Positions 3,551-55,242 of a DNA stretch of 64,000 bases are shown here, one piece after another. The notes under the pieces are model-generated. The model ran no database searches. It was given only the letters and a program-made list of their open reading frames with translations, and was not told the origin of the DNA. Source of the stretch: Candidatus Woesearchaeota archaeon CG10_big_fil_rev_8_21_14_0_10_44_13 (GTDB lineage: Archaea > Nanobdellota > Nanobdellia > Woesearchaeales > UBA12501); contig PCXZ01000034.1 in the NCBI GenBank assembly GCA_002762985.1, forward strand, positions 8,431 through 72,430. The letters are read 5' to 3'. Position 1 is the first letter of the stretch; the number at the start of each line of letters is the position of its first letter. Made by a program: the position numbers and the translations under genes.

Positions 3551-5167
3551 ATGCACACAAAATTCATTGTTGTAACAGGGGGGGTTCTTTCAGGCGTCGG
3601 GAAAGGCACGATAACCGCTTCTATAGGAAAATTGCTTTCGCTGCAGGGCTATAAGGTCGCTTCTATCAAGATAGACCCTTACATAAACATAGATGCAGGC
3701 ACTATGAGGCCCACTGAGCACGGCGAGGTGTTCGTGACAGAGGACGGAGGCGAGACTGACCAGGACCTTGGGATATATGAGAGGTTCATAGGGAATTACT
3801 GCCTTAAAGAGCAGAATATGACGACTGGCCAGGTCTATGAGACCGTGATCCACAAAGAGAGGAACCTTGAATATGGCGGCAGATGCGTTGAGGTCATACC
3901 CCACATACCCGAAGAGGTGAAAAGAAGGATCAAGGCAGTTGCCGAGAAAAACAATGCTGATTTCTGCCTTATTGAAGTTGGGGGGACTGTAGGGGATTAC
4001 CAGAATGTGCTTTTCCTGGAAGCGCTCAGGGAGATGAGGCTTCAGGGAGAAAAGATAGTCTTTGTGCATGTCGCTTATCTTCCTGTGCCCGGGAATCTTG
4101 GTGAGATGAAGACTAAGCCTGCGCAGAGATCCGTAAGGGACCTGAATTCAATAGGGATACAGCCAGATTTCATAGTCACAAGATCTGCGATGCCGCTTGA
4201 TGATGTAAGGAAAGAGAAGCTCTCATTGTTCTGCAATGTAGTCAAGGATGATGTGATCTCATCCCCTGATGTCAGGAACATCTATGAAGTGCCGCTTGTA
4301 TTGGAAAGCCAGGATTTCACCTCAAAGGTGCTCTCTAAATTCAACATGGTCTTCAAGACTGGGAAGATGAAGGAGTGGGAGGCATTTGTTGAAAGTACAA
4401 AAAAACTGGAAAAAGAGGCCAGGATAGGCATCATAGGGAAGTATTTTGACACTGGCGATTTCACGCTTGAGGATTCCTATATCTCTGTCATTGAGGCAGT
4501 GAAGCATGCGTGCTGGAACAACGGCTTCAGGCCCAAGATTGAATGGATAAACTCAAAGGATTATGAGAAGGACGATAAATTGCTGCAGGGATTGAAGAGT
4601 TATGATGCCATCATTGTGCCCGGCGGTTTCGGGAAATCGGGCGTTGAAGGGAAGATCAAGGCAATAAGGTTTGCCCGCGAGAACAAGATCCCTTATCTTG
4701 GATTGTGCTACGGCATGCAGCTTGCTGTGATCGAGTTCGCAAGGAATGTCTGCGGGATGAAGGATGCGAATACGACTGAGAACGACCCGAAGACAAGATT
4801 CCCTGTCATTGACATAATGCCCGAGCAGAAGAAGATAATCGCAGAATCGAAGTATGGGGCGACGATGAGGCTCGGGGCTTATAAGGCCGTGCTTAAGAAA
4901 GGGAGCATAGTGCATAAGCTTTATGGCAAGGATGAGGTTTCTGAACGTCATAGGCACAGGTATGAGGTGAATCCTGAGTTCATTTCTAAATTAGAGGCAA
5001 AAGGCCTTGTGTTCTCCGGGAAAAGCCCTGATGGGAAGCTGATGGAGTTCATTGAAATCCAAAATCATATTTTTATGGTGGGAACACAAGGGCATCCAGA
5101 GTTCAAGTCTTATCCGATGAAGCCTTCGCCATTGTTCGACGGGCTTGTGAAGGCGATCAAGAAGTAG
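3551..5167 (+). CDS. pyrG: CTP synthase
   Basis: 538 aa. The N-terminal synthetase domain has VTGGVLSGVGKG. The C-terminal class-I glutamine amidotransferase has GLCYGMQ and the HPEF His region. Confidence 0.95.
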   Translation: MHTKFIVVTGGVLSGVGKGTITASIGKLLSLQGYKVASIKIDPYINIDAGTMRPTEHGEVFVTEDGGETDQDLGIYERFIGNYCLKEQNMTTGQVYETVIHKERNLEYGGRCVEVIPHIPEEVKRRIKAVAEKNNADFCLIEVGGTVGDYQNVLFLEALREMRLQGEKIVFVHVAYLPVPGNLGEMKTKPAQRSVRDLNSIGIQPDFIVTRSAMPLDDVRKEKLSLFCNVVKDDVISSPDVRNIYEVPLVLESQDFTSKVLSKFNMVFKTGKMKEWEAFVESTKKLEKEARIGIIGKYFDTGDFTLEDSYISVIEAVKHACWNNGFRPKIEWINSKDYEKDDKLLQGLKSYDAIIVPGGFGKSGVEGKIKAIRFARENKIPYLGLCYGMQLAVIEFARNVCGMKDANTTENDPKTRFPVIDIMPEQKKIIAESKYGATMRLGAYKAVLKKGSIVHKLYGKDEVSERHRHRYEVNPEFISKLEAKGLVFSGKSPDGKLMEFIEIQNHIFMVGTQGHPEFKSYPMKPSPLFDGLVKAIKK

Positions 5168-5168
5168 A

Positions 5169-5519
5169 TTATTTCTTTTTGTAGCTGAATTTTTTGTCAT
5201 AAGTTTTATGATCGATTATATCTAGAATAAATACGATTAACTCATTTTCATCTTTTCCAGAAGTCAATGTATAAAGCATTCTCCAAAAGTCCGGAAGTTC
5301 TATCCTAAACAGGTTATTTATGTTATAGTTTAGCTTATATTCTACAGGGGTTAGGGGCTTAGAGATAGGATCCCCATAATGTATATCTATTTTCACTAAT
5401 CTTATTTTTTGATTTATAGCGTCAAGAAGCATCCGGTCTAGTTTTGTTGTTTTTGTATTTAATAGATTATAGACTAGTTCTGCTTCTGGTGAAAATATGA
5501 CCTTGACTAGTTTTTTCAT
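5169..5519 (-). CDS. RelE/ParE-family type II toxin
   Basis: The C-terminal FWRMLYTLTSGKDENELIVFILDIIDHKTYDKKF matches the RelE/ParE signature (yRiiY...viLrighRk.vY). It lies immediately downstream of a small ORF on the same strand, the canonical antitoxin-toxin order. Confidence 0.55.
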   Translation of the reverse strand: MKKLVKVIFSPEAELVYNLLNTKTTKLDRMLLDAINQKIRLVKIDIHYGDPISKPLTPVEYKLNYNINNLFRIELPDFWRMLYTLTSGKDENELIVFILDIIDHKTYDKKFSYKKK

Positions 5520-5578
5520 GCAATATGTACAGAATTTAGTTTTTATAAGCCTTGCTCAAAAAATCCGAAAATCTTCCG

Positions 5579-5848
5579 CTATAACCGTAAACCTTCCGAA
5601 ATCGCTTTCTTTAATGATGGGTTTGTGTTGTGCACCCAGGTGATCCCTTTTAGACCAAAAGTTATCTTGTTGCTTTCCTCAAGATATCCCAGGATTGCCT
5701 TCAGTGTGTTGTGGTTCACCTGCTTCGGGAGCCTTCTTTTGAGCTCTGCTATTGTTATTACGCTATCGTCCATAGTTTTGAGAGCTTTCTCTACCATGAG
5801 GATGGTGTTCAATGTGGGGTAATGCTCTAGTTTTTGTTCGTGTAACAT
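5579..5848 (-). CDS. small DNA-binding-like protein, putative antitoxin of the RelE/ParE pair
   Basis: 89 aa, directly upstream of and co-oriented with the toxin. Its start codon lies inside the repeated motif ATGTTACAC, which recurs twice at 7389-7443. Confidence 0.45.
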   Translation of the reverse strand: MLHEQKLEHYPTLNTILMVEKALKTMDDSVITIAELKRRLPKQVNHNTLKAILGYLEESNKITFGLKGITWVHNTNPSLKKAISEGLRL

Positions 5849-6100
5849 TTTAATAACAAATATTTATCAATTAATACCTAATATATATTAACTTATATAT
5901 AAATGTTTTGGTTTGGTATGAGATAATATTAAGAAAATTTATATAAGCTCCGTTTTTCCTATGCTCAATGGCTATCCCCTACTTCCCGAACGACAACTGG
6001 TGGTCTTTGCCTTTCATGGCTTCTGTAATGACGATTGTTGCCATAGTTGTGGCATTCTATATCGCCTACAAGGAGGCGAAGAGGAAGGAGTTGAACTTAG
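5836..6100. repeat. direct repeat copy A (~250 bp): ATGTTACAC motif + A/T-rich promoter + first ~45 codons of an lgt-like gene
   Basis: About 90% nucleotide identity to 7499-7630 over the coding part (MAIPYFPNDNWWSLPFMASVMTIVAIVVAFYIAYKEAKRKEL vs MPIPYFPNDNWWSLPFMASVMTFVAIVVAFYIAYKEAKRKDL). The upstream aatttatataagc / ccgtttttcct blocks are also shared. Confidence 0.7.
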
Positions 6101-6291
6101 AAGAAAATTATATGATTAACCATTTCCACAAGGGGATGAAATCGATGCCATTTTCCTTTTTTTCCGTGTCTTTTGTCAAAATGACCAGTTCATTGACCTT
6201 GCTTAATTCCTGTTTGCACTCCATGAGAGCTTTTATTTCCCTTTCATCAATCTCATCAGTATATGAAACATTCATTGCCGTCAGGCTTTGA
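5968..6291 (+). pseudogene. truncated 5' fragment of an lgt-family gene (first ~45 codons intact, then reads into the antisense of the ATPase gene)
   Basis: The N-terminus is near-identical to the intact paralog at 7499..8320. Homology ends at ~6100, where the convergent ATPase gene's 3' end begins. Confidence 0.6.
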
Positions 6292-7388
6292 TCTTCATTT
6301 TTGATCATGAAATCCACTTCGCCTTTGTTTTTCCAGTAATAGACATCTTTTTCCCTTCTTTTTAATTCAATAAAAACCAGATTCTCAGCCAGCTTCCCTT
6401 CATCCCTTGAAAATTTAAAGCTGACGGAATTCCTCAATCCGTTGTCTATGCAGTAAATCTTCGATGGCAGCGTCTTCTGTTCCTTGAATGAGTAGGCGAA
6501 ATGGTCCAGTGTGAAAAATAAGAAAGCCTCTTTAAAATAAGATAGATAATCCCTTATGGTGTCATAGGATATTTTCAGAGAGTTTCTCAGACTTCTCAGG
6601 GAGATTATGCCTGTAGAGTTTGTTGTGAGAAATAATGCGAGATCCTTTGTCTTCTGTGTATTAAGATTATATCTGTCAATTATATCTTTATACAATATAT
6701 CATCAAAATACTGCTCCAGGATCCTAATCTTATATTCTTTCACCTTAAAGAAGATTTCAGGAAAACCGCCAAGAGCCATATACTCTTTCAAATGCTTCAG
6801 GATGAGCAGTTTTGTTTTTTCCAGGACTACCCCCCTCTTCAAATTATCCTTGCTGATTGAAATTTCTTTGAATAACAGGAATTCCTCAAAACCAAGCGGA
6901 AAAACCTCAAATGTGATGTTCCTGCCTGTCAAAAGAGTGGAATATTCTTTTCTCAACAGATGGGAACATGATCCTGAAATAACGAACTTGTCGTCAGTTT
7001 TTAGGTCATATTTTTTCCTTATCCATGATTCCCATCCCTCTTTTCTATGGATCTCGTCCAGGAAGATATATGCCTTCTTGTCCGGGTTTATGTCCCCCCT
7101 GTAGCCCGAGTAGATATCATCTAACGAATCATCCACAAGCTTTTTGTCCTCGAGATTCACAAACAAAATCTGCTCCGGCGATGCTCCCTTTTCCAGCAAT
7201 TTGGCTATCATCTGGTACATCAATGTGCTCTTCCCGGACCTCCTTACGCCCGTTATCACTGTTATCTCCCTTATCCTGACAGAATCGACCAGATGGCTGT
7301 ATTTCGGCCTGTTCTTGCCCTTCAATTCGTCTGGCAGGGACTTTTTCTCCCACCACTGGTTCCATTCGCTTAATTTGCTTATTTCCAT
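6108..7388 (-). CDS. AAA+ superfamily ATPase with a C-terminal DUF4143 (COG1373-type) domain
   Basis: Walker A GVRRSGKSTLMYQ and Walker B FLDEIH. The C-terminal ...GEVDFMIKNE... region is typical of the DUF4143 restriction-endonuclease-like fold. It is the only gene between the two ~250-bp direct repeats. Confidence 0.8.
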   Translation of the reverse strand: MEISKLSEWNQWWEKKSLPDELKGKNRPKYSHLVDSVRIREITVITGVRRSGKSTLMYQMIAKLLEKGASPEQILFVNLEDKKLVDDSLDDIYSGYRGDINPDKKAYIFLDEIHRKEGWESWIRKKYDLKTDDKFVISGSCSHLLRKEYSTLLTGRNITFEVFPLGFEEFLLFKEISISKDNLKRGVVLEKTKLLILKHLKEYMALGGFPEIFFKVKEYKIRILEQYFDDILYKDIIDRYNLNTQKTKDLALFLTTNSTGIISLRSLRNSLKISYDTIRDYLSYFKEAFLFFTLDHFAYSFKEQKTLPSKIYCIDNGLRNSVSFKFSRDEGKLAENLVFIELKRREKDVYYWKNKGEVDFMIKNEDQSLTAMNVSYTDEIDEREIKALMECKQELSKVNELVILTKDTEKKENGIDFIPLWKWLII

Positions 7389-7443
7389 ATGTTACGTTTA
7401 GGTGTAACATTAACTATATAAATGTTACGTTTTTGTGTAACAT
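7389..7443. promoter_or_regulatory. two copies of the palindrome ATGTTAC-N8-GTAACAT flanking a TATA box (ctatataaa), abutting the ATPase start codon
   Basis: Half-sites lie at 7389-7395/7404-7410 and 7422-7428/7437-7443. On the minus strand each copy reads ATGTTACAC..., the same 9-mer that starts the putative antitoxin gene at 5848. Confidence 0.5.
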
Positions 7444-7630
7444 TTTAGGCATTTATGCGGCTGACAACATTTATATAAAGCCCCGATTTCTTTGTTTCAT
7501 GCCGATCCCCTACTTCCCGAACGACAACTGGTGGTCTTTGCCTTTCATGGCTTCTGTGATGACCTTTGTTGCGATAGTCGTTGCGTTCTATATTGCCTAT
7601 AAAGAGGCGAAGAGGAAGGATCTGAATGTT
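7389..7630. repeat. direct repeat copy B (partner of 5836-6100)
   Basis: See copy A. Together the two copies bracket the 1.3-kb ATPase gene. Confidence 0.7.
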
Positions 7631-8320
7631 GATATGTTCTTCATGTCTGCACTTTGGATGGGTGCTGGTGCGTTGATCGGAGGATGGCTTGCTTTCTTTT
7701 TGACGCCTGGGCCGGGGTTCCTTAATATCTACCATCCTGGGGCGCATAGTGTGGGGGTGATTGTTGGAGGGGGGTTGGGAATAGCTGCTTATTGTTTGTA
7801 TAAAAAAGAGAATATAAAAAAAAAGTGTGGGAATCTAACAATATTCTTTACGAACCTTGCTGAAATATGGGGTTTAGGTGCCATGATAGGTACTTTTTTT
7901 TATAGGATTGGAGATTTCTTGAGCCATTGCATCGAGATTGGGACTCCGACTAACTTGCCTTGGGCAGTCATTGATAATGGAATAGCAAGGCATCCGATTA
8001 ATTTGTATTATTCACTTGCAGGGATAGTGATTTTTGTTATTTTAATTGAAATAAATAAAATTAAAATATCAAAAGAGGTTAAAGGATATACTCTAACCTG
8101 GTTTTTGATGATATATCCACTTTCAAGATTGTTTGTGGATTTATATAGGGTCCAATATTCAAAATTTTTTGGTTTAAGTGTTGATCAATTGATATTCTTA
8201 TTATTGACTATCCAATCTATAATTGCAATAATGGCTATCCACATATTATACAGATTTGAAAAAAGAAGACAGTTTGTTTATCCCCCATTAGATTTGATAA
8301 GATATTTGCTTAAAAAATAG
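7499..8320 (+). CDS. prolipoprotein diacylglyceryl transferase (Lgt) family membrane protein, paralog 1 (divergent)
   Basis: Multi-TM. Contains YRIGDFLSHCIEIG...WAVIDNGIARHPINLYYSLAG, which is collinear with the Lgt signature region (G-R-x-G-x-F...HP-x-QLY) seen in the three paralogs at 19.7-24.3 kb. The start is taken at the ATG matching the duplicated copy (7499), not the upstream ORF-track start. Confidence 0.55.
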   Translation: MPIPYFPNDNWWSLPFMASVMTFVAIVVAFYIAYKEAKRKDLNVDMFFMSALWMGAGALIGGWLAFFLTPGPGFLNIYHPGAHSVGVIVGGGLGIAAYCLYKKENIKKKCGNLTIFFTNLAEIWGLGAMIGTFFYRIGDFLSHCIEIGTPTNLPWAVIDNGIARHPINLYYSLAGIVIFVILIEINKIKISKEVKGYTLTWFLMIYPLSRLFVDLYRVQYSKFFGLSVDQLIFLLLTIQSIIAIMAIHILYRFEKRRQFVYPPLDLIRYLLKK

Positions 8321-8328
8321 TATAATTT

Positions 8329-9057
8329 TTATTTTAAACACACAAAATAATTATACAAACCGCTAGTATTTTCTTTTTTTAATATAACTTTAGGAGATTT
8401 AAATAAAATTAAAACAGAAGTAATGTAGGTGAGTAAACTCTGAGAGGTTATCGCAGTTCCTTGGGTGTAAACATCTACATTTTTAAAACCTTTATTTTTT
8501 ATAATATTAAGAAGTTCTTCCGTTTTAAATTCTTTTTTATGACTATTACAAAAAGGTTTTTTTGTGTTAAATAAGGCATCATTGAATTTTTTATTGGGCG
8601 TTGAAAGGATCATCACTCCTCCTTTTTTTAAAAGTTTGTAGACTTCTTTTAAGAATAGGCCATAATTATTTATATGTTCTATGGTTTCTAGAGAGACTAT
8701 CACATCAAATGACCCTTTAGCTAATTTTGTCTGCGTAGCTTCTGAACAGATAAAATGAAGATTTTTTGAGCGATATAGCTTTTTATTTCTTTTTATAGTG
8801 TCATGGTCCATATCAACTGCATAAACTTGGAATGCTTTTTTTGAGAGAATATTCGAACCATAGCCACACCCGCATGCAATATCCAAAACAATATCACATT
8901 TAGTTATATAATCTGAAGCAAAATTGTATCCCTGGGTATGAAAATTTTTCATTGTATTGAAAATGATATTTCTCCTTCCGTCCATATCAAATCGTTCTGT
9001 GCTCATCATCGGAGAGAATAATCGCCTTAATCCTTTATTGATTAGAGTAGCGCCCAT
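8329..9057 (-). CDS. class I SAM-dependent methyltransferase
   Basis: Motif I VLDIACGCGYGS, an acidic post-I residue and the motif-II-like FDVIVSLETIEHI. It is the last gene of the minus-strand radical-SAM cluster. Confidence 0.75.
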   Translation of the reverse strand: MGATLINKGLRRLFSPMMSTERFDMDGRRNIIFNTMKNFHTQGYNFASDYITKCDIVLDIACGCGYGSNILSKKAFQVYAVDMDHDTIKRNKKLYRSKNLHFICSEATQTKLAKGSFDVIVSLETIEHINNYGLFLKEVYKLLKKGGVMILSTPNKKFNDALFNTKKPFCNSHKKEFKTEELLNIIKNKGFKNVDVYTQGTAITSQSLLTYITSVLILFKSPKVILKKENTSGLYNYFVCLK

Positions 9058-9066
9058 ATCAAGACC

Positions 9067-10077
9067 TCATGAGCTCAAAAAAAATCTTAGTTTATGGCTG
9101 CTGTAATAACTCTCGCAAAGGGCATAGTTCTCTACGCAGGATTTATTGCATTCAACCAATCTTTTTTCGAACATGCCCTTATAGGTTTGGTAGTAATTTT
9201 TATCAATGCCCTTAATGTTGACGCCTAAAGACTTCGTTTCAGGGCATAAGGATATCTCACCACCCAAACCTACAGAGAAGAAATGCCTGCCTGCCCCGCA
9301 TCTCCAATTATATCTACCGCGTATAAACTCTTTCATATGTTCATAACAGTGTATAGGTTCGAATATGGGATAACCTTCTTTTTTCTTTTTTATTAAAGTA
9401 TCAAAAAGTAAATCTAATTCTTTTAATTGTTTTTTATTGAATACTGTATTTTTGCTATAAGATATGAATTTAGATGGGGGCTGTGTCACCAAACAGGTGG
9501 TTATTATTATGCCTTTACCAGTTATACGCTCAAGGAGAGGGATTACCTCGCGGGTGTTTAATCCAGTAAGAACAATATTTACTGCGATGAACAGGCCTTT
9601 TTTCATGGAAGCATATTCTAAGTCCTCAATAAGGCAAGGATTATCAGATAGCGTTTTCTTGGACTGTCTTGCTCTGTTTATGCCGTCTAAGGAGACCACC
9701 ATTGAATTCATGCCTGCATCTGCAAGCTTATCGATCAGCTCTTTTGATAATAAGGTGCCGTTTGTGTCCATTACTACAAACATATTTTGTTTATTGCAAT
9801 ATCTGGTCAATTCTACAATGTCCTTCCTTAAGGTAGGCTCTCCACCCATAAAATAAACCATATTGCAGCCTATCTCCTTTATCTTATCAATCCTCTCTTT
9901 TAAATCATTTAATGGGGGGTCCTTACTATTCTTTTTTATGAAACAATAAGAGCAGTCCAAGTTGCAGTTTCTTGTGACAAACAGACCTACGAACATTGGG
10001 GAAGGTCGGTTGAATAAGAATCTATTCAATGCAGGGATAATATTCGATTTGATAAATAATAATTTTTGTTTTTTCAT
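9067..10077 (-). CDS. radical SAM enzyme with a C-terminal SPASM/twitch Cys-rich domain (peptide/cofactor-maturase type)
   Basis: CxxxCxxC (CNLDCSYC) near the N-terminus and a GGEP motif. C-terminal cysteines (CGAGRH..., SLCPE, CNKSCVENYALC) are as expected for SPASM. Confidence 0.75.
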   Translation of the reverse strand: MKKQKLLFIKSNIIPALNRFLFNRPSPMFVGLFVTRNCNLDCSYCFIKKNSKDPPLNDLKERIDKIKEIGCNMVYFMGGEPTLRKDIVELTRYCNKQNMFVVMDTNGTLLSKELIDKLADAGMNSMVVSLDGINRARQSKKTLSDNPCLIEDLEYASMKKGLFIAVNIVLTGLNTREVIPLLERITGKGIIITTCLVTQPPSKFISYSKNTVFNKKQLKELDLLFDTLIKKKKEGYPIFEPIHCYEHMKEFIRGRYNWRCGAGRHFFSVGLGGEISLCPETKSLGVNIKGIDKNYYQTYKGMFEKRLVECNKSCVENYALCESYYSSHKLRFFLSS

Positions 10078-10088
10078 TTTATATGCCC

Positions 10089-11162
10089 TTAAAATGGTTT
10101 TCTGATCAGATCATAAATCTTGTTTGGAAGAATCATATTCAAAAAGAAATGAAAACCGTTAAACTCTTCAAAGGTTTTATTTTTTAAGCAATTTGAACAT
10201 ACTAAATCAGAAGTGATATCTTTTCGTTTGAATATCATCCTTCTTGCAGTTAAGTAGTTTGGACCGTTCCAAACACTAAAAAAACTTTGGTTAGAGATAT
10301 TACCGAAAGTGTGGTTATCCCCATATATCAAACAACAAGGGAATACGCCCCCATCAAAATTAATTGCCGATGAGACGTTCAGGTATTTACAGTTTTTTGG
10401 ATTTTTCAAATAAAGTTTGTATTCCTTATTAGAAGGGAACCAATCGCGATACTTCTTTAATTTAGTAGTATTATCTTCAAAAACCCCCTTACCCAGATCA
10501 GATCTTACTCTGGATAATAATAGCTTATCAAAACCTAGGCGAATATATTGTTTTTTGATGGTGTCAACTTCGTGCTCATTATATTTATTCACTATAAACT
10601 GGCAGATTATCTTAGGTCGTTTAATGCCATACCTAGTTTTGTAATAGTTTATTAAGCGTACATTCTTTAATACTTTGTTTAAATCGCCACCAATCCTATA
10701 TTTTTGATAAGTCTCCTGAGTCAAACCATCTAACGAAACTATGAGGTACCATAATCCGGATCTTACTAATTGTTTGCATGAGTTTCTGTCTAAAGTAGTC
10801 AGATTAGAGCTCGTTATAGGTATAACTAATTTTTTTCTGCTTAATTTGATAAATCTGAATAAATCCTTATTCAAGAAAGGTTCACCCCAGTTGTATAAGA
10901 ATAAGAATAAAGAATAATCCCCTATTTCACCCATTACCCTTTTGAATAAACTATATTTCAGGAATCCGCGTTTCATCCCCCTATCGCCCTGTCCGGTGGG
11001 GCATAAAGGGCACTTTAAATTACAAACATTCCCTGGGTCCATAAAAATATATAACGGATAAGCATTGACATATTCTTTATTAAATGAATGATAATAGGCT
11101 ATATTAATAGCATTCCAGAGTTTCTTATAAAAAACTTTTTTGAAGATAATTGTTGGTTTCAT
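10089..11162 (-). CDS. radical SAM enzyme with a C-terminal SPASM-like domain (second copy)
   Basis: CNLKCPLC (CxxxCxxC) and a GEP motif. C-terminal CCLIYGD...CSNC cysteines. Confidence 0.7.
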   Translation of the reverse strand: MKPTIIFKKVFYKKLWNAINIAYYHSFNKEYVNAYPLYIFMDPGNVCNLKCPLCPTGQGDRGMKRGFLKYSLFKRVMGEIGDYSLFLFLYNWGEPFLNKDLFRFIKLSRKKLVIPITSSNLTTLDRNSCKQLVRSGLWYLIVSLDGLTQETYQKYRIGGDLNKVLKNVRLINYYKTRYGIKRPKIICQFIVNKYNEHEVDTIKKQYIRLGFDKLLLSRVRSDLGKGVFEDNTTKLKKYRDWFPSNKEYKLYLKNPKNCKYLNVSSAINFDGGVFPCCLIYGDNHTFGNISNQSFFSVWNGPNYLTARRMIFKRKDITSDLVCSNCLKNKTFEEFNGFHFFLNMILPNKIYDLIRKPF

Positions 11163-11166
11163 TCGA

Positions 11167-12105
11167 TCAGCCTGAAAAGTTCAATTTTTGTCCTAACCCC
11201 TTAGACCCAATTGATTTTAATAGATAAAAAAATGATTTGAATCTCGAATTATTATTTTCTTGACTATTTATCATCTTAAATGATGCTGATATAATTAAAT
11301 AAAAAAATAAAATAATTAACCATACAAAGTATAATAACAATAAGAATAGGAATTTAAAAGATAAATGTTTCTTTAAGAAAATGTATAGGCTATTATTAAA
11401 ATTATATATGACGAATGGGGAAAGGGAATGTTTTATTGTTCCCCCCCATTTATGCAATATCTTTACATTATCAGCCCTCTTTGTTTTAAAGCCTTTGAGC
11501 CTCGCTCTTTTCCCATAATCAAAATCGTCAAAATAAAAGAGTCTTTCATCAAAATAACCAATTTCTTTTGCTTTATTATTATCAATCATCATTGCACACC
11601 CATCAACCATAGAATTCCATTTCGCCAGTTTTAAGGAATTTATGATTTTTAATAACCAAAAGCTCTCAAAGATTTTTTTATCTTGGTTATCCAGTAAATA
11701 TGAAGTTGGAAAGACTATTGCTGTGCTTTTATCATTATTAAAATAGTTTAAAATAAGGTGTAACATATTTCTATCAGTTATTATGGTATCCACATTCAAG
11801 AAAAAGGTATAATCAAACCCTTTGTTTATTGAATATTTCAACCCGTTATTATTTGCTTTTTGTAACCCTCTATTTTTTTTATTTTTCATAACTATCAGGC
11901 CATATCCCTTTGCGTAATCTAAAGTTTTATCCGAAGAAGCATTATCAATCAATAAAACTTTATAATTATTATACTCTAATTTAAATAAAGAAGATAAACA
12001 ACTTTTTATATACTTTTCACTATCCCAGCTTACAATTACAAATAAGATTTTTGGGTCATAACTATGTTTTTTTATTTTAAATGTCATTTTAGCCATCAAT
12101 ACCAC
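11167..12105 (-). CDS. family 2 glycosyltransferase
   Basis: N-terminal GT-A fold signatures (VIVSWDSEKY, LLIDNASSD, DxD-like NVDTI) and a C-terminal TM helix. It overlaps the upstream B12-rSAM gene by 10 nt. Confidence 0.7.
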   Translation of the reverse strand: MVLMAKMTFKIKKHSYDPKILFVIVSWDSEKYIKSCLSSLFKLEYNNYKVLLIDNASSDKTLDYAKGYGLIVMKNKKNRGLQKANNNGLKYSINKGFDYTFFLNVDTIITDRNMLHLILNYFNNDKSTAIVFPTSYLLDNQDKKIFESFWLLKIINSLKLAKWNSMVDGCAMMIDNNKAKEIGYFDERLFYFDDFDYGKRARLKGFKTKRADNVKILHKWGGTIKHSLSPFVIYNFNNSLYIFLKKHLSFKFLFLLLLYFVWLIILFFYLIISASFKMINSQENNNSRFKSFFYLLKSIGSKGLGQKLNFSG

Positions 12106-13616
12106 CCCGGCTTCGTGTTGTAATTGACCTTCCTTCCAAGCAAAGATTCGCTCAGCATCCCCCTGATGAACCTGAAAGACATCTTGGCCTTGTGCCCTGA
12201 CATCGAGCTGACGGCATTCTTCCTCCTTGAAGAACCGAGATTCAACCCTGCAAACTGCTCTTTCCTTGTCCTTATCCTAAGCTCATTGAGCATCATGTAA
12301 AACATCAATTGATTCCTTGACAGGTATTTCGACCTTGCGACAGGATTTATGAAATTATAGTACTTGAAATCCTTTATCTCTATAAGGTTTTTCTTCTCAA
12401 GCTCATCAAAATACCTTGTGCCTGGGTTCGGCGTCAAAGGCAATGGAACGCCGGTGTCAAAAGGTATCCCATTCAGCAGATCATAGAACCTTTTCAATGA
12501 CTGCCTTGTCTCATTAGGCAGCCCGTAAAGATATGTCGCTACAGAATAGACCTCAGGATATCTCCTGACTATCTCGAAAGCCTTTTTTATCGTGTCATAT
12601 GAATAGCCTTCCTTGTCAAGATACCTCAGGTCATCATTGTCTGTCCTCTCCACACCTATCATCACCTGCTTCAATCCGGCTTTGACCTGTTTCCCAAAAA
12701 TGCCTTTCTGCTCATCCCTGACTATGAAATCAGCCCTGAGCCATACTGAATGATCAATGTCCAGGCCGGTCTTTATCATCTCTTCAGCGAATTCCCTGTT
12801 CCATCTCGGATTCACGTTCCATGTGGGGTCAACCCAGCAGAAGGTCTTCCTGTTGAATTTCTCATGTAAATATGCAACCTCCTCAACTGTCCTTTTTACG
12901 GATTTGGTCCTGTAATGGGGCCTAACTTTCCCTGTTTTCATATCGAGCTGGCCCATCTGCTTCCATAGTATGCAGAAGTTACAGCTGCATGTGCAGCCCC
13001 TGCTGTGTTCAACAGCTACAAAATTCCTATGGTTCCTGCTCTTGCCGCCATAAGCGCCCATATCCAAAAGATCATATGCTGGCATAGGCAGGCTGTCAAG
13101 ATTTTTTATCAGGGGCCTTAACGATGTTTCAATCACTTTCCCTTTATCCTTGTATGCGATGCCATTTATCCTGCTCAAATCCTGCTTCGACCTGTCTTTT
13201 TTCAGTTCCCTGACAAGCTCAAGAAGTGTCTCTTCGCCCTCAAACCTCACAACAAAATCTATCTGGTGGTTATTGAGGGAATCGTTGGCCATGTATGTGA
13301 AATAAGTCCCTCCGGCGATCACAATAAGCTCTGGAAACATTGATCTGGCGATATTGACAAGCTTAAAAGCCTCGTTCACAGAGACAGTCTCTTCGCCAAT
13401 ACAAAGTACATCCGGCTTCTCCCTTTTCAATGCTTCTGGGACGCTTTTCCAGCCGATCTTCAGGGCAGGAAAGTCTATTATGCCAATTTTTATATCATCA
13501 ATATTCTCCCTGAGAACCGCGGCCATTGATGCGAAAGCCAGGGGCTGCCAAAAAGAGCTGTTTTCAGAATGGAACGGCCACATATACCTGGGCGGCCTGA
13601 CAAATAGTATCTTCAT
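12096..13616 (-). CDS. B12-binding (class B) radical SAM enzyme
   Basis: The N-terminal Rossmann-like cobalamin-binding domain (KILFVRPP...VLCIGEETVS...IAGG) is followed by the radical SAM core with CxxxCxxC (CTCSCNFC). 506 aa. Confidence 0.8.
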   Translation of the reverse strand: MKILFVRPPRYMWPFHSENSSFWQPLAFASMAAVLRENIDDIKIGIIDFPALKIGWKSVPEALKREKPDVLCIGEETVSVNEAFKLVNIARSMFPELIVIAGGTYFTYMANDSLNNHQIDFVVRFEGEETLLELVRELKKDRSKQDLSRINGIAYKDKGKVIETSLRPLIKNLDSLPMPAYDLLDMGAYGGKSRNHRNFVAVEHSRGCTCSCNFCILWKQMGQLDMKTGKVRPHYRTKSVKRTVEEVAYLHEKFNRKTFCWVDPTWNVNPRWNREFAEEMIKTGLDIDHSVWLRADFIVRDEQKGIFGKQVKAGLKQVMIGVERTDNDDLRYLDKEGYSYDTIKKAFEIVRRYPEVYSVATYLYGLPNETRQSLKRFYDLLNGIPFDTGVPLPLTPNPGTRYFDELEKKNLIEIKDFKYYNFINPVARSKYLSRNQLMFYMMLNELRIRTRKEQFAGLNLGSSRRKNAVSSMSGHKAKMSFRFIRGMLSESLLGRKVNYNTKPGWY

Positions 13617-13672
13617 TGCGCTATAACCCCCATTATCCTTTTTTTAGTATGATATTATCCTGAATTTAAAAT

Positions 13673-14152
13673 TCATTTCCTCAATACCTTATTTATATTC
13701 TTAAAAAACGTGTATGCATTATCGAGCGATTCTTTTGCGGGTTCTTTGTTGGCTTGGGGCAGTTTCTGATAAGTAAACTCTCCCCTTTTCCCTTTCTCTC
13801 TTGAAAAAATACCTAAAAGCTCTTCTGCCCTTATTATCATTTTTTTGTAGATTTTCAACAATTCAACATCAAGTTTGCCTGTCTTGACCAGATACATCTC
13901 AAAAGCACCAATAGTCTTCCTGTGGACTTCAGGAGACCCCGTTTTTATATCCCCCTCCATCAATATCGCCTTGGCAGAGTTAAATATGCAATAATAAGAA
14001 TTGCTTATCACCAAGCTGTAAAAAGTAAAGTTTTTCTCCAGCTTAAACTGCTCTTTCTGCAGTTTTGGATTATTTGAGATGTCAAAAAGTATCTGGGCTG
14101 CTGCAAGCTCATTTTCTGCCCTTTGTAGATATAACTCCGCTTCATCTTTCAT
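13673..14152 (-). CDS. HEPN-domain protein (toxin-like partner of the upstream nucleotidyltransferase)
   Basis: The N-terminus YLQRAENELAAAQILFDIS is HEPN-like. The gene lies 1 nt downstream of an MNT-type nucleotidyltransferase gene on the same strand. Confidence 0.55.
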   Translation of the reverse strand: MKDEAELYLQRAENELAAAQILFDISNNPKLQKEQFKLEKNFTFYSLVISNSYYCIFNSAKAILMEGDIKTGSPEVHRKTIGAFEMYLVKTGKLDVELLKIYKKMIIRAEELLGIFSREKGKRGEFTYQKLPQANKEPAKESLDNAYTFFKNINKVLRK

Positions 14153-14153
14153 T

Positions 14154-14759
14154 CTATTTTCCTCTTATCAGATTAAGATATTCAATAAATCCATAATAGA
14201 CGATATTGTTTTTGTATATCTGTTTTCCCAGATTTTCATAATCAACTTTCAGCATTTCCAAGAATTCATCTCTTGTCATGATATGATAGTCTATACGCAG
14301 AATCTCTCTTCTTTTTATTGTCTCCAGATAAGGGGATACTTCTTTTTTTGTCTTTTCTGATTCGACAATGATTGCTATATCCAGATCTGATTTCTCTTTT
14401 GCCTTGCCCTTGACATGGCTGCCGAATACGATTAAAATGAAAAATTCAGTATACCCCGATACCTTTGCCTGTATGCGCTTTAGCACATCCACCGGCATCT
14501 TGTTTTTGCTTATCTCCAGCTCATTTACAAGGTTTAAGTAGGATAATGTCAGGTTATTGTCCAAATTCAAAAAATAGGTCGTCACATCCCCTGTCTCTTT
14601 TGTCTTTATCAGGCCCTGCTTTTTGAATTCCTTTAACGCAATCTGGATCAGGTTGTTTGATTTCTGCCTAAGCTGCTCTTTTATCTGCCTGAAGGTGAGC
14701 CCTATAGATATGTCTCTTTTAAAACAGCCTATGATTTTTATCTGCTCTTTTGTCAGCAT
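14154..14759 (-). CDS. minimal nucleotidyltransferase (MNT) protein with an N-terminal winged-helix region; HEPN/MNT pair
   Basis: FILIVFGSHVKGKAKEKSDLDIAIIV is the GS-x(n)-D-x-D polymerase-beta-type NTase motif. It is adjacent to the HEPN gene. Confidence 0.65.
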   Translation of the reverse strand: MLTKEQIKIIGCFKRDISIGLTFRQIKEQLRQKSNNLIQIALKEFKKQGLIKTKETGDVTTYFLNLDNNLTLSYLNLVNELEISKNKMPVDVLKRIQAKVSGYTEFFILIVFGSHVKGKAKEKSDLDIAIIVESEKTKKEVSPYLETIKRREILRIDYHIMTRDEFLEMLKVDYENLGKQIYKNNIVYYGFIEYLNLIRGK

Positions 14760-14766
14760 TTTAGTT

Positions 14767-14804
14767 TACCTATTTTTTGGTAATTCACTACCTATTTTTT
14801 GGTA
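14767..14804. promoter_or_regulatory. perfect 16-nt direct repeat tacctattttttggta x2 (6-nt spacer) in the promoter region of the MNT/HEPN operon
   Basis: Repeats at 14767-14782 and 14789-14804. Each unit has palindromic ends (TACC...GGTA) around an A/T core and lies 8-45 nt upstream of the minus-strand ATG at 14759. Confidence 0.4.
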
Positions 14805-14829
14805 TTATAAAAAGTTTATGGTTTTTAAC

Positions 14830-15678
14830 TCAATTCCTCCTATCAACGACAAACCTCGCGATCTCCCCCAATATCTCGGCTTTCCCTTCAAAGACAGACA
14901 AGGCTTTGATAGCATCCCACATATAATTCTTCATCATCTCCCTTGATTTCTCAGCTCCGTAATGCGTGACAAAGGTATTCTTCTTCTCATCCTTCTGCGT
15001 GTCCTTGCCCAATTCCTCAGGAGTGCTCTCGATATCCAGCAGATCGTCCTTTATCTGGAATACCAATCCGAGATTCTCTGCGTACCTGAGCAAGGCCTTG
15101 GCCTCCTTTTCAGGGGCTTTCGCCTTTATGCACGCTGCCTTAACGGCTCCGATGAACAAAGCGCCTGTCTTATGCTCGTGGATGTATTTCAGGGTCTCAA
15201 AATCGATCTTCTTGTTCATGGTCTCAAGGTCCACTGTCTGGCCGCCGGCAACTCCCTGCGAACCCAGGCAGGACGAGATCTCATGCGCCACATCGATATC
15301 ATCAACGATCTCTATCGCCCTCAGGATGAGGCTTATCGCGGCAAGATCAGCGATATCCTCCCCAAAGACCTTATGGCAGCACGGCTTTCCCCTTCTTATC
15401 GTCGCATCATCCATGCATGGCAGGTCATCAAGTATCAATAAAGCAGTGTGTGTCATCTCCAAAGCGCAGGCAGTGGCCATCATATCTTCCTTATCGACAC
15501 CGAAAAGCTCTGCGACTGCCAATGCTATTATGGGCCTTATCCTCTTGCCGCCTGCAAATATAGAATGCCTCATCGCCTTATGCAATGACTGGGGGTAAGC
15601 GCTTTCAGGAGGCAGGAACCTATTCAATGACTTCTCTACCAATTCCTTCCTCTCTTTGAGATAGCTCTGCAATTCCAT
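14830..15678 (-). CDS. trans-polyprenyl diphosphate synthase (GGPP synthase-type)
   Basis: First Asp-rich motif LILDDLPCMDDATIRRGKP and second Asp-rich motif FQIKDDLLD; 282 aa. Confidence 0.85.
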   Translation of the reverse strand: MELQSYLKERKELVEKSLNRFLPPESAYPQSLHKAMRHSIFAGGKRIRPIIALAVAELFGVDKEDMMATACALEMTHTALLILDDLPCMDDATIRRGKPCCHKVFGEDIADLAAISLILRAIEIVDDIDVAHEISSCLGSQGVAGGQTVDLETMNKKIDFETLKYIHEHKTGALFIGAVKAACIKAKAPEKEAKALLRYAENLGLVFQIKDDLLDIESTPEELGKDTQKDEKKNTFVTHYGAEKSREMMKNYMWDAIKALSVFEGKAEILGEIARFVVDRRN

Positions 15679-55143: not shown

Positions 55144-55242
55144 ATTATGTTACACCTGCAATAGGTTATATCCGGAGATATTATATCCCGTCAAGATTGC
55201 GTCCTATATCATAAGGCAAACACCGTATATCACGCTATCGTA

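Follow-up and report, generated by a model that had tools for sequence, protein, structure and literature searches.

A single gene encoding an AAA+ ATPase of the PADLOC PDC-S01 family lies between two direct repeats in the archaeal DNA that we analyzed (64,000 nt, hereafter the window), and each repeat holds the promoter and the first 43 codons of an lgt-like gene. Our preferred reading, which we hold with modest confidence, is that the ~1.37 kb between the repeats (6096-7468) is a mobile single-gene PDC-S01 cassette that recombined reciprocally into the start of lgt, next to a surrogate lgt 5' end. The coordinates of all the features are given in Table 1.

Table 1. Features of the pyrG-lgt region, in window coordinates
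Feature	Position	Strand	Basis
pyrG (CTP synthase), conserved left border of the hot spot	3551..5167	+	NCBIfam CTP synthase, E=4.6e-215
Toxin-antitoxin-like pair: 89-aa ORF (5579-5848), then 116-aa ORF (5169-5519)	5169..5848	-	ORF list
Ancestral lgt upstream region, with a distal BRE/TATA (~5894-5910) facing the minus-strand cassette	5849..5936		colinear with L002, L003 and L004
Repeat copy A: truncated stub made up of the lgt TATA box and codons 1-43, start codon intact	5937..6095	+	alignment
Chimeric 107-aa ORF: Lgt residues 1-43, then read-through antisense to the ATPase 3' end	5968..6291	+	ORF list
Exact core, in common with 7505-7557	5974..6026	+	alignment; ends of Logan contig L001 fall inside
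Joint of 12 nt, from the lgt stub to the ATPase stop codon	6096..6107		sequence
Cassette gene: AAA+ ATPase, HTH, PD-(D/E)XK nuclease (AAA_14 and DUF4143; PADLOC PDC-S01)	6108..7388	-	profile matches
Cassette promoter: palindrome 2 (7389-7410), TATA box (7411-7421), palindrome 1 (7422-7443)	7389..7443	-	conserved in 73 aligned loci
Spacer of 25 nt, from the cassette promoter to repeat copy B	7444..7468		sequence
Repeat copy B: start of the intact gene, from the lgt TATA box to codon 43	7469..7626	+	alignment
Lgt-like gene in its intact form (273 aa), bounding the hot spot on the right	7499..8320	+	PF01790, E=2e-21

Using gapped blastn, repeat copies A and B align over 160 nt with 85.6% identity (E=3.5e-44) and differ at 23 of the 160 positions. 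An ungapped direct match of 140 nt, at 86%, joins 5956-6095 to 7487-7626, and 114 of the 129 nucleotides of lgt codons 1-43 are equal between both copies. Inside the repeat there is an exact core of 53 nt with diverged sequence on either side, which is likely an exchange or gene-conversion tract. Both copies include the lgt TATA box (ATTTATATAA), located 22-31 nt 5' of each ATG. In copy A, the similarity to Lgt stops past codon 43 and the sequence continues antisense to the 3' end of the ATPase gene, the sole gene between the copies, while copy B is the start of the intact lgt-like gene. An earlier, sequence-only reading of this DNA had described a truncated copy A, a copy B heading an intact gene (here confirmed by its PF01790 match) and a lone ATPase on the opposite strand between them, and all three descriptions agree with our results. 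It had also given the repeat ~90% identity over the first ~45 lgt codons; the repeat is there and the figures hold in substance, with measured values of 85.6-86% and 43 codons. The proposed length of ~250 bp, reaching into upstream blocks, has to be corrected to ~160 bp, since the upstream matches of TATATAAATGTT and ATGTTACAC are not colinear (128 versus 64 nt from the ATG) and amount to generic BRE/TATA sequence and an ATPase operator. On the copy B side, they fall in the TATA box and operator that belong to the ATPase and recur in ~70 unrelated loci; on the copy A side, in the start codon of the 89-aa ORF and in a conserved distal BRE/TATA upstream of lgt, which is also found in the related loci L002, L003 and L004. 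The chimeric ORF that begins in copy A gave no Lgt match in Pfam. Given that it retains the promoter, convergent transcription into the ATPase gene may occur.

Regarding the cassette gene, its product matched AAA_14 (PF13173, E=6.6e-35, residues 40-171) and DUF4143 (PF13635, E=1.2e-20, residues 235-376). It has the domain order of the PDC-S01 family, whose PADLOC model PDLC04787 it matches over nearly its full length (E=2.6e-106). The Walker A motif, GVRRSGKST, is invariant across alignment A2 of the ATPase homologues. In the AF2 model, residues 330-426 form an alpha-beta nuclease-like fold (pLDDT ~90) that overlaps the C-terminal part of the PF13635 region and extends past it; outside these residues the model is poor (mean pLDDT of 60), too weak to support a search by fold. 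A PDB profile search matched only designed PPR proteins, and we discarded these matches as spurious. DUF4143 has been placed in the PD-(D/E)XK superfamily (PMC3424549), and arCOG03166, described with an AAA+ ATPase-HTH-PD-(D/E)XK nuclease architecture, has been noted in archaeal ‘dark matter islands’ as a likely defence or plasmid gene (PMC4158269). Judging by the matching architecture, the cassette ATPase would be an arCOG03166 member. PDC-S01 is reported to rank fourth by frequency among the defence candidates of prokaryotes, its occurrences falling disproportionately in Archaea; multiple PDCs are reported to be enriched in DPANN, and antiviral protection has not been validated experimentally for most PDCs (PMC12988326). 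We treat the gene as a candidate antiviral gene, with a predicted role.

The ATPase has more than 2,800 homologues, of which the best 120 are 70-79% identical. Nearly all the named homologues among these 120 come from DPANN archaeal metagenome-assembled genomes (MAGs), many of them on contigs of ~1.5 kb. The host of the window is itself a Woesearchaeota MAG. Only distant homologues (30-37% identity) are present on plasmid and phage records, and 175 Acinetobacter plasmid records carry distant homologues. A scan of viral contigs for the ATPase gave no match, nor did a search for plasmid DNA similar to window positions 5100-8400.

The cassette carries a promoter of its own, in which a TATA box is placed between two GTTAC-N8-GTAAC palindromes. 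These 55 nt are kept in the 73 aligned loci, with palindromes as strongly conserved as the ATPase gene, while the sequence outside them is unrelated among the loci; beyond this promoter and the stop codon, the ATPase unit has no conserved flanks. Since the ATG abuts palindrome 2, the ATPase mRNA is probably leaderless. The twin palindromes are candidate operators, probably bound by the HTH of the ATPase itself, which would give autoregulation. We also considered a hairpin or attC-like reading of the palindromes and rejected it, as there is no base-pair covariation (3 cells versus 3.2 in shuffles).

Across the family, direct repeats of 30-230 nt bracket the ATPase in 22 of 63 unique loci and are absent in 41, compared to a single case among 40 non-ATPase control ORFs (Fisher p=6e-5). 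Flanking inverted repeats were found in none of the 63. In ~18 of the 22 bracketed loci the repeat duplicates the end of a neighbouring gene or a tRNA: the duplicated piece is the 5' or the 3' end of a gene or, in L018, the 3' half of a tRNA-Leu, and one copy is always left intact. Arrays also occur, in which copies of one repeat are separated by toxin-antitoxin cassettes, as in L084, L027 and L059, where MNT-HEPN or ParE cassettes lie between three repeat copies. With around a third of its archaeal relatives bracketed in a similar manner, the family behaves as a movable cassette, and the presence of toxin-antitoxin cassettes bounded by the same type of repeat indicates that the process extends beyond the ATPase. 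The other embedded cassette of the window, HEPN-MNT at 13673-14759, has no flanking direct repeats.

In most loci, the repeats lie 51-257 nt upstream of the ATPase ATG and from -59 to +108 nt around its stop codon (much further in a few), so that the element has no defined termini. Between L031 and L034, identity is 94% over the cassette block (-73 to +43) and 87% in the upstream flank, and the downstream sequence is unrelated. Near-identical cassettes at two different sites were not found: pairs above 94% identity share their upstream locus, and those of at least 99% identity have identical flanks wherever these can be compared. Such pairs had been considered as a sign of recent transposition, and all of them turned out to be the same locus resampled. 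Movement is therefore rare or old. The literature that we found on DUF4143, COG1373, PDC-S01, or Woesearchaeota/DPANN together with direct repeats holds nothing on mobility or repeats. Neither the twin-operator promoter of PDC-S01 nor its direct-repeat bracket is mentioned there; the family appears only as a candidate defence gene embedded in other systems, and the embedding of single genes such as PDC-S01 among others is not explained (PMC12988326; bioRxiv 10.1101/2024.01.29.577857).

The cassette sits between pyrG and lgt, in a region that varies among relatives. The intact Lgt-like gene, matched by PF01790 over 19-245, heads a radical-SAM/polyprenyl-synthase cluster. Its NCBIfam score of 47 bits against a cut-off of 334 marks it as a divergent paralogue, and it has only 5 close homologues in a database of 5.8 billion proteins; its homologues include P0002-P0005. 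The exact 273-aa protein is not on record because gene callers took an internal start. On the other border, the 3' end of pyrG also limits the variable region in L002 and L003. The order in L002 is pyrG, lgt fragment, AbiE cassette and lgt, and in L003 it is pyrG, NTase plus ATPase_2, and lgt. The two relatives with this neighbourhood thus hold different cassettes, of defence or toxin-antitoxin type, which makes it a hot spot. Next to pyrG, the window has a toxin-antitoxin-like pair whose two ORFs gave no Pfam match, so that a RelE/ParE-like nature of the 116-aa ORF is suggested by motif inspection. A homologous pair (37% and 41% identity) is present in L036, 1.2 kb from an ATPase cassette. 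A tRNA scan and an Rfam gathering scan of the window found nothing. The sequence-only reading had proposed to look in related genomes for an empty site. Among the close relatives (Lgt and pyrG homologues and their contigs) we found no unoccupied pyrG-lgt junction, the closest pyrG relatives having other arrangements, and the comparison yielded instead the different cassettes of the two relatives. It had also named what would count against it, a full second lgt in relatives at the position of copy A (5968); this was not seen, with one lgt each in L002, L003 and L004. Its central claim, the insertion or recombination of an ATPase cassette between duplicated stretches of the lgt 5' end, is supported by this lack of a second lgt, by the hot spot, by the frequency of the bracket compared to the controls and by the lack of conserved flanks.

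Comparing the codons of the two lgt copies gave a dS of 0.72 and a dN of 0.03 (dN/dS of 0.04). There are 3 nonsynonymous differences, while neutral decay of copy A would give ~30 (P ~7e-10). Both copies have diverged as functional genes under strong purifying selection. The repeat is consequently not a simple local duplication that aged, and one copy was imported with a cassette or beside it. Such divergence is better explained by recombination with a surrogate lgt start carried on the cassette than by a duplication in situ that aged. We tried to polarize the changes using L002 as outgroup and abandoned the attempt because synonymous sites are saturated among relatives. In the other loci, the pooled repeat differences (12 synonymous to 13 nonsynonymous) are a better match to duplication in situ followed by decay than to a surrogate gene end, so that at least one further process may act.

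According to our preferred reading, the cassette would be a self-contained, horizontally mobile unit with its own leaderless promoter. It would arrive by reciprocal (Campbell-type) recombination within the first ~20 codons of lgt, and the partner DNA would carry it beside a second, diverged but functional lgt 5' end, consisting of the promoter and 43 codons. After the exchange, copy A would remain on the far side as a promoter-bearing stub of 43 codons and copy B would head an intact lgt, with which the target gene would keep working, as happens with prophages that bring a surrogate gene end. The intermediate may be circular, and recombination may be carried out by the homologous recombination of the host or by an enzyme acting in trans. 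We identified no recombinase for the cassette: it has a single gene between the repeats, and in two batches of neighbouring ORFs (239 in total) neither set of the 25 commonest Pfam families includes an integrase family, though single occurrences may lie below these ranks. The 53-nt core could also be a later gene-conversion tract and not the original point of exchange. The Logan contig L001, which equals window positions 5997-7534, would fit either the integrated form or a circle of 1,531 bp; no circular junction was seen. Several observations count against the preferred reading: besides the missing circular junction and recombinase, there is no empty site, no near-identical cassette at two sites and no fixed distance from repeat to cassette, the pooled differences of the other loci suit decay in situ, and 41 of the 63 loci have no repeat.

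One could argue that the ATPase was the resident and that the toxin-antitoxin cassette and the stub are the newcomers, brought by a one-sided, homology-facilitated illegitimate recombination that fused two versions of the hot spot. The resident version would be pyrG-ATPase-lgt. The incoming fragment of a diverged relative (pyrG, toxin-antitoxin cassette, lgt promoter and codons 1-43) would have pyrG as its anchor, and the end broken within lgt would be joined illegitimately just past pyrG. We consider this unlikely, and it is the alternative that survives best. Both lgt copies resemble parts of functional genes, copy A lies in the canonical lgt upstream context of L002, L003 and L004, and the lgt fragment of L002 adjoins a cassette other than the ATPase; besides, this kind of recombination has been put forward to explain additive cassette arrays in other systems (PMC5361080). 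At the joint, 6099-6111 is alike in 11 of 13 positions to the end of pyrG with its convergent stop codon (5160-5172). The position is suggestive of a pyrG relic, but this 13-mer is not significant genome-wide (5 matches versus 2.7 expected), and we rejected it as such. The fusion also predicts differences along the entire repeat rather than an exact core, and on its own it leaves unexplained that ATPase genes in particular are bracketed in 22 of 63 loci.

A second alternative is that the ATPase-nuclease recognizes its own twin palindromes, cuts and inserts the cassette, with wide staggered cuts giving rise to long and variable target-site duplications. The protein has ATPase, HTH and nuclease domains (the arCOG03166 architecture, PMC4158269), the palindromes are as conserved as the gene, the repeats are direct only and variable in length, their pooled differences in other loci suit duplication and decay, and no integrase is common nearby. 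Against it, the cassette ends are not conserved, variable and unrelated DNA separates repeat and cassette, and the palindromes are on one side only. Moreover, toxin-antitoxin cassettes lacking the ATPase are bounded by the same repeats, no identical copies occupy different sites, and the repeat of the window did not begin as an identical duplication. As an account of the window, we find it very doubtful. The broader proposal that DPANN PDC-S01 cassettes are a new, minimal, integrase-less mobile element, in which the protein binds its own promoter sites, drives excision and integration and perhaps mobilizes toxin-antitoxin neighbours in trans, is hardly less doubtful; if true, self-driven movement would generate the 30-230-bp duplications of a target gene end or tRNA and account for the ‘embedded’ state of PDC-S01.

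That the repeat is a remnant of a tandem lgt duplication with the ATPase between its copies by chance is largely refuted, and we judge it highly improbable. The two tandem Lgt genes of L100 indicate that such duplications occur in the group, but only one lgt is present in each of L002, L003 and L004, a distance of 12 nt separates the end of copy A from the ATPase stop codon, the repeats around homologous ATPase cassettes come from many unrelated genes and a tRNA, and the dS of 0.72 with such a low dN/dS is unlike a decaying remnant. Finally, an assembly artefact in which strain variants or an episome were threaded through the shared core is scarcely credible: the source is a metagenome-assembled genome and both ends of L001 fall inside the core, but the ATPase is also on two contigs of 50-200 kb (possibly derived from the same data) and on an identical unitig of an independent Logan assembly, longer k-mers and read pairs can resolve the 23 differences in 160 positions, and this architecture recurs in more than 20 loci of various studies.

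We compared the cassette with known systems. Integron cassettes consist of a promoterless ORF followed by a folded attC, with an intI integrase and attI nearby. Together with the pdif modules of Acinetobacter plasmids, they are units of 1-2 genes, often toxin-antitoxin or defence, that are arrayed and moved by an enzyme encoded elsewhere. PDC-S01 cassettes are likewise small units, arrayed in some loci, with no recombinase identified in them. Unlike them, they have no conserved attC- or pdif-like site at their borders, they carry their own TATA promoter, and their repeats derive from the target; their palindromes belong to the promoter, at the 5' side of the gene alone, and lack hairpin covariation. 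Transposons and insertion sequences are defined by a transposase gene, terminal inverted repeats and a target-site duplication of fixed length. In our case, Pfam found no transposase domain in the cassette gene, inverted repeats flanked none of the 63 loci, the direct repeats range from 30 to 230 nt and the ends are not conserved.

There are also parallels with integrative elements that bring a surrogate target-gene end, such as e14 and phage 21 in the icd gene of E. coli and the tRNA-targeting elements of archaea and bacteria (see PMC6563490). As in these, the cassette is flanked by direct repeats, one truncated and one intact, with an identical core and diverged arms, and the imported gene end was kept functional, as its low dN/dS reveals; in both, gene ends or tRNA genes serve as targets, and a single site can gather tandem arrays. 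While surrogate-end elements have multiple genes, an encoded integrase and a fixed att site, the window unit has one gene in 1.4 kb and no recombinase, targets and repeat lengths vary by locus, and the piece used is a gene 5' end together with its promoter. Additive ‘displacement’ arrays, such as T6SS effector-immunity arrays and Rhs/CDI orphan modules, arise by homology-facilitated illegitimate recombination (PMC5361080). There too, small conflict cassettes pile up beside a conserved gene, fragments of which remain between them, and no dedicated integrase is involved. In displacement arrays, the genes retained are orphan immunity genes that lie downstream of a conserved toxin core, whereas the window keeps the 5' end of an unrelated housekeeping-type gene, and its exact core suggests a reciprocal exchange.

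Taken with the ~90 related loci, the window points to DPANN PDC-S01 as a plug-and-play unit that would travel with its operator-TATA-operator promoter, land at gene ends and tRNA genes with the target preserved, and stack with toxin-antitoxin cassettes in small arrays. To our knowledge, CRISPR is largely absent from symbiotic archaea with tiny genomes. Our results suggest that these archaea renew their defences via very small recombining cassettes.

The sequence-only reading had described direct repeats of about 250 bp that duplicate the start of an lgt-like gene on both sides of an ATPase gene. A repeat search recovered a direct repeat at this position, with 86% ungapped identity, and gapped blastn widened it to 160 nt (85.6%, E=3.5e-44), so the repeat stands but the proposed length was too long. 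Both copies, A and B, agree at 114 of the 129 nt of lgt-like codons 1–43, share a 53-nt exact core and carry an ATTTATATAA box 22–31 nt 5' of the ATG. As proposed, copy A is truncated: its similarity to Lgt stops after codon 43, and the reading frame then runs antisense to the 3' end of the ATPase gene, giving a chimeric ORF of 107 aa. Copy B is the start of an intact 273-aa gene (PF01790, E=2e-21), and the sole gene between the copies encodes a 426-aa ATPase. The upstream 'TATATAAATGTT' and 'ATGTTACAC' matches, previously taken as a continuation of the repeat, are not colinear with it. On the copy B side they belong to the ATPase gene, as its TATA box and operator, and on the copy A side they are the distal BRE/TATA and the start codon of an 89-aa ORF; this distal BRE/TATA is kept upstream of lgt in relatives.

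Coordinates of features in the window and in fetched loci (L numbers)
Feature	Locus	Position	Remark
pyrG end and stop codon of convergent toxin gene	window	5160-5172	AGAAGTAGATTAT
89-aa/116-aa toxin-antitoxin-like pair	window	5169-5848	
Interval from pyrG to SecF/SecD	window	~5200-31100	~26 kb
GTGTAACAT, three of the copies	window	5840-5848, 11758-11766, 55147-55155	
Repeat, ungapped (A / B)	window	5956-6095 / 7487-7626	
Repeat, gapped (A / B)	window	5937-6095 / 7469-7626	
Exact core (A = B)	window	5974-6026 = 7505-7557	
Extent equal to Logan contig L001	window	5997-7534	
Stub/ATPase-stop joint	window	6099-6111	AGAAGAAAATTAT
ATPase	window	6108-7388	minus strand
Lgt-headed cluster	window	7499-15678	
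HEPN	window	13673-14152	toxin-antitoxin cassette inside lgt cluster
Nucleotidyltransferase	window	14154-14759	toxin-antitoxin cassette inside lgt cluster
HEPN-MNT promoter palindromes	window	14767-14782, 14789-14804	TACCTATTTTTTGGTA, exact
Class-I aminoacyl-tRNA synthetase	window	52681-55143	
ATPase cassette and Lgt-family gene	L044	3027-5293	
Homologues of 89-aa/116-aa pair	L036	6500-7113	37%, 41% identity
LAGLIDADG_3 + HTH protein and ATPase	L010	4738-7343	
~21-nt units	L055	3760-3900	TTGTAATCTTCGGCACCT

The repeat bracket is a property of the ATPase family. Once resampled loci were removed, 63 unique loci had 300 nt or more on each side; direct repeats (E<1e-6) of 30–230 nt (median 72) flank the ATPase in 22 of them, and inverted repeats in none (0/63). 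Control ORFs from the same loci were positive in 4 of 43 cases, three being divergent ATPase paralogues and the fourth a low-complexity protein; after exclusion, 1 of 40 non-ATPase controls remained positive (Fisher p=6e-5). The repeat sequence differs from locus to locus. In the window, L028 and L051 it duplicates the 5' end of a divergently oriented neighbour, and in L023 that of a gene downstream. In L027, L084 and L094 it comes from the 3' end of the gene upstream, in L018 from the 3' half of a tRNA-Leu and in L061 from what by eye is a whole tRNA, not called by the tRNA scan. An intact copy is present in every case. At L007, L024, L065 and L091 the repeats concern the 3' ends of ATPase genes or ATPase cassettes in tandem. 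Three copies of one repeat are present in each of L084, L027 and L059, where toxin-antitoxin genes (MNT-HEPN, MNT-HepT or ParE) occupy the second interval, and in 12 loci two to four divergent ATPase paralogues are adjacent to one another. The commonest neighbouring ORFs are nucleotidyltransferase/HEPN modules and further ATPases, and integrases are missing from the 25 commonest Pfam families of each of the two batches of neighbouring ORFs (239 together). Besides, the L010 segment, with a 383-aa LAGLIDADG_3 plus HTH protein and the ATPase, is bounded by a 47-nt direct repeat (96%), and in L055 the motif of several units upstream of the cassette recurs inside the repeat downstream of it.

Fetched loci comprised 15 from species-representative genomes and 80 from metagenomes, with ATPases 60–77% identical. 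In nearly every locus, the 55-nt stretch 5' of the ATG consists of GTTAC-N8-GTAAC, ATTTATATA, N5-6, GTTAC-N8-GTAAC and AT(AT)G. The TATA box lies ~26 nt before the start codon, which abuts the second palindrome, as in a leaderless archaeal promoter. The palindromes lack compensatory base changes (3 cells vs 3.2 in shuffles) and hence act like conserved half-sites for a protein that binds double-stranded DNA rather than like a hairpin; the HTH domain encoded by the cassette itself may bind them, in autoregulation. Outside the promoter block and past the stop codon, sequences are unrelated among loci. L031 and L034 share 94% identity across positions -73 to +43 and 87% in the upstream flank; their downstream flanks are unrelated. 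The cassette is an autonomous unit. The outer half of its operator, GTGTAACAT, occurs five times in the window vs 0.16 expected. One of these coincides with ATGTTACAC, where the 89-aa antitoxin-like ORF starts, another lies 3 nt upstream of the aminoacyl-tRNA synthetase gene and a further one within a glycosyltransferase gene; they may be additional binding sites or relics.

Only five close Lgt homologues were found in a database of 5.8 billion proteins, and two of them share the pyrG-lgt neighbourhood, with different gap contents in each. In L002 a 60-nt piece of lgt (codons 38–60) comes before an AbiEi/AbiEii-like pair, in L003 the gap holds a nucleotidyltransferase and an ATPase_2 protein, and in the window it holds the lgt stub, the PDC-S01 cassette and the toxin-antitoxin-like pair. 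The site in the window is a hot spot. A true empty site was not found, because closer pyrG relatives show other gene orders. The interval between pyrG and SecF/SecD is lineage-specific; L103 and L104 have pyrG, one gene, then SecF and SecD. In L044, a Woesearchaeota-type contig, the cassette likewise lies divergently beside the start of a gene of the Lgt family, which has 30% identity to the one in the window, and no repeat is present. The L036 pair lies 1.2 kb downstream of an ATPase cassette, so this module and the ATPase co-occur in more than one genome.

Over codons 1–43, copies A and B show 12 synonymous and 3 nonsynonymous differences (dS 0.72, dN 0.03), contradicting an identical local duplication followed by ageing; neutral stub decay would give ~30 nonsynonymous differences (P about 7e-10). 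The differences are mosaic: the promoter part is ~70% identical, codons 3–19 are identical and synonymous sites in codons 20–43 are nearly saturated. Nucleotide-level constraint is ruled out as the cause of the core, since L002 differs at synonymous sites within it. Two diverged functional lgt starts with an exact exchange or conversion tract would be the signature of reciprocal recombination. At other loci, the pooled differences (12 synonymous to 13 nonsynonymous) are closer to what decay after an in situ duplication would give, and the repeats may therefore have arisen by more than one route.

Prophages integrate into icd or tRNA genes with a surrogate gene end. By analogy, we favour a Campbell-type integration in which a cassette bearing an lgt 5' fragment would have undergone reciprocal exchange with the chromosome through this surrogate end, by host homologous recombination or a recombinase in trans. 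Archaeal integrative elements have a comparable surrogate gene end (PMC6563490). The independent contig L001 (1,538 bp) has both ends within the core; a de Bruijn graph would yield it from the integrated form and from a circle of 1,531 bp alike, and hence it does not discriminate. The main rival to Campbell-type integration is homology-facilitated illegitimate recombination, proposed for T6SS and Rhs arrays (PMC5361080), between two hot-spot versions, the newcomer being the toxin-antitoxin cassette plus stub. The stub/ATPase-stop joint resembles the pyrG end at 11 of 13 positions in the same register, which hints at such an event and may be a relic of an older pyrG-ATPase junction, but this 13-mer is not significant genome-wide. 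Another reading, in which the ATPase-nuclease transposes its own cassette, loses weight because the cassette ends are not conserved, different sites have no identical copies, and toxin-antitoxin cassettes are bounded by the same repeats. A second full lgt, whose presence in relatives would, according to the earlier reading, have pointed to a tandem-duplication remnant unrelated to the ATPase, is absent in the window, L002 and L003; such a remnant is unlikely, as is an assembly artefact.

The ATPase contains AAA_14 (E=6.6e-35) and DUF4143 (E=1.2e-20) domains, the latter placed in the PD-(D/E)XK superfamily (PMC3424549), and matches the PADLOC candidate defence family PDC-S01 (E=2.6e-106). PDC-S01, an ATPase fused to a PD-(D/E)XK domain, reportedly ranks fourth by frequency among prokaryotic defence candidates and occurs disproportionately often in Archaea; DPANN are reported to be enriched in multiple PDCs, and experimental validation is lacking for most of the core PDCs (PMC12988326). 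The window gene's architecture (AAA+ ATPase, HTH, PD-(D/E)XK) matches that of arCOG03166, reported from archaeal 'dark matter islands' as a likely defence or plasmid gene (PMC4158269), and suggests membership of this arCOG. Its AlphaFold model is poor overall (pLDDT 60), with a confident alpha-beta nuclease-like fold in the C-terminal domain (330–426), and the modelled helices 244–297 are compatible with an HTH. Many close homologues lie on contigs of ~1.35–1.7 kb, near cassette size (e.g. L001, L029 and L041), which suggests that assemblies often break at cassette borders, from repeats or strain variation.

The Lgt-like gene, far under NCBIfam equivalog cut-offs, opens a cluster conserved in L003, L004 and L100, with a SAM methyltransferase, radical SAM/SPASM enzymes, a GT2 glycosyltransferase, a B12-binding radical SAM enzyme and a polyprenyl synthase. 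Such a gene set would fit lipid or prenyl modification in a DPANN archaeon. The HEPN-nucleotidyltransferase cassette is missing from syntenic L003, and no flanking direct repeat was found around it (window 13673-14804). Its promoter palindromes (TACC-N8-GGTA), 22 nt apart, are analogous to the ATPase cassette's pair.

We found no description of the PDC-S01 family promoter or repeat bracket in the searchable literature. Insertion or recombination of the cassette beside a duplicated lgt start, as originally suggested, is supported and generalises to family loci. Judging from sequence, the window element would be a minimal, integrase-less, single-gene candidate defence cassette of a DPANN archaeon, with its own conserved twin-operator promoter; it apparently integrated where a gene begins, and the end of this target is present as a surrogate or a duplicate.
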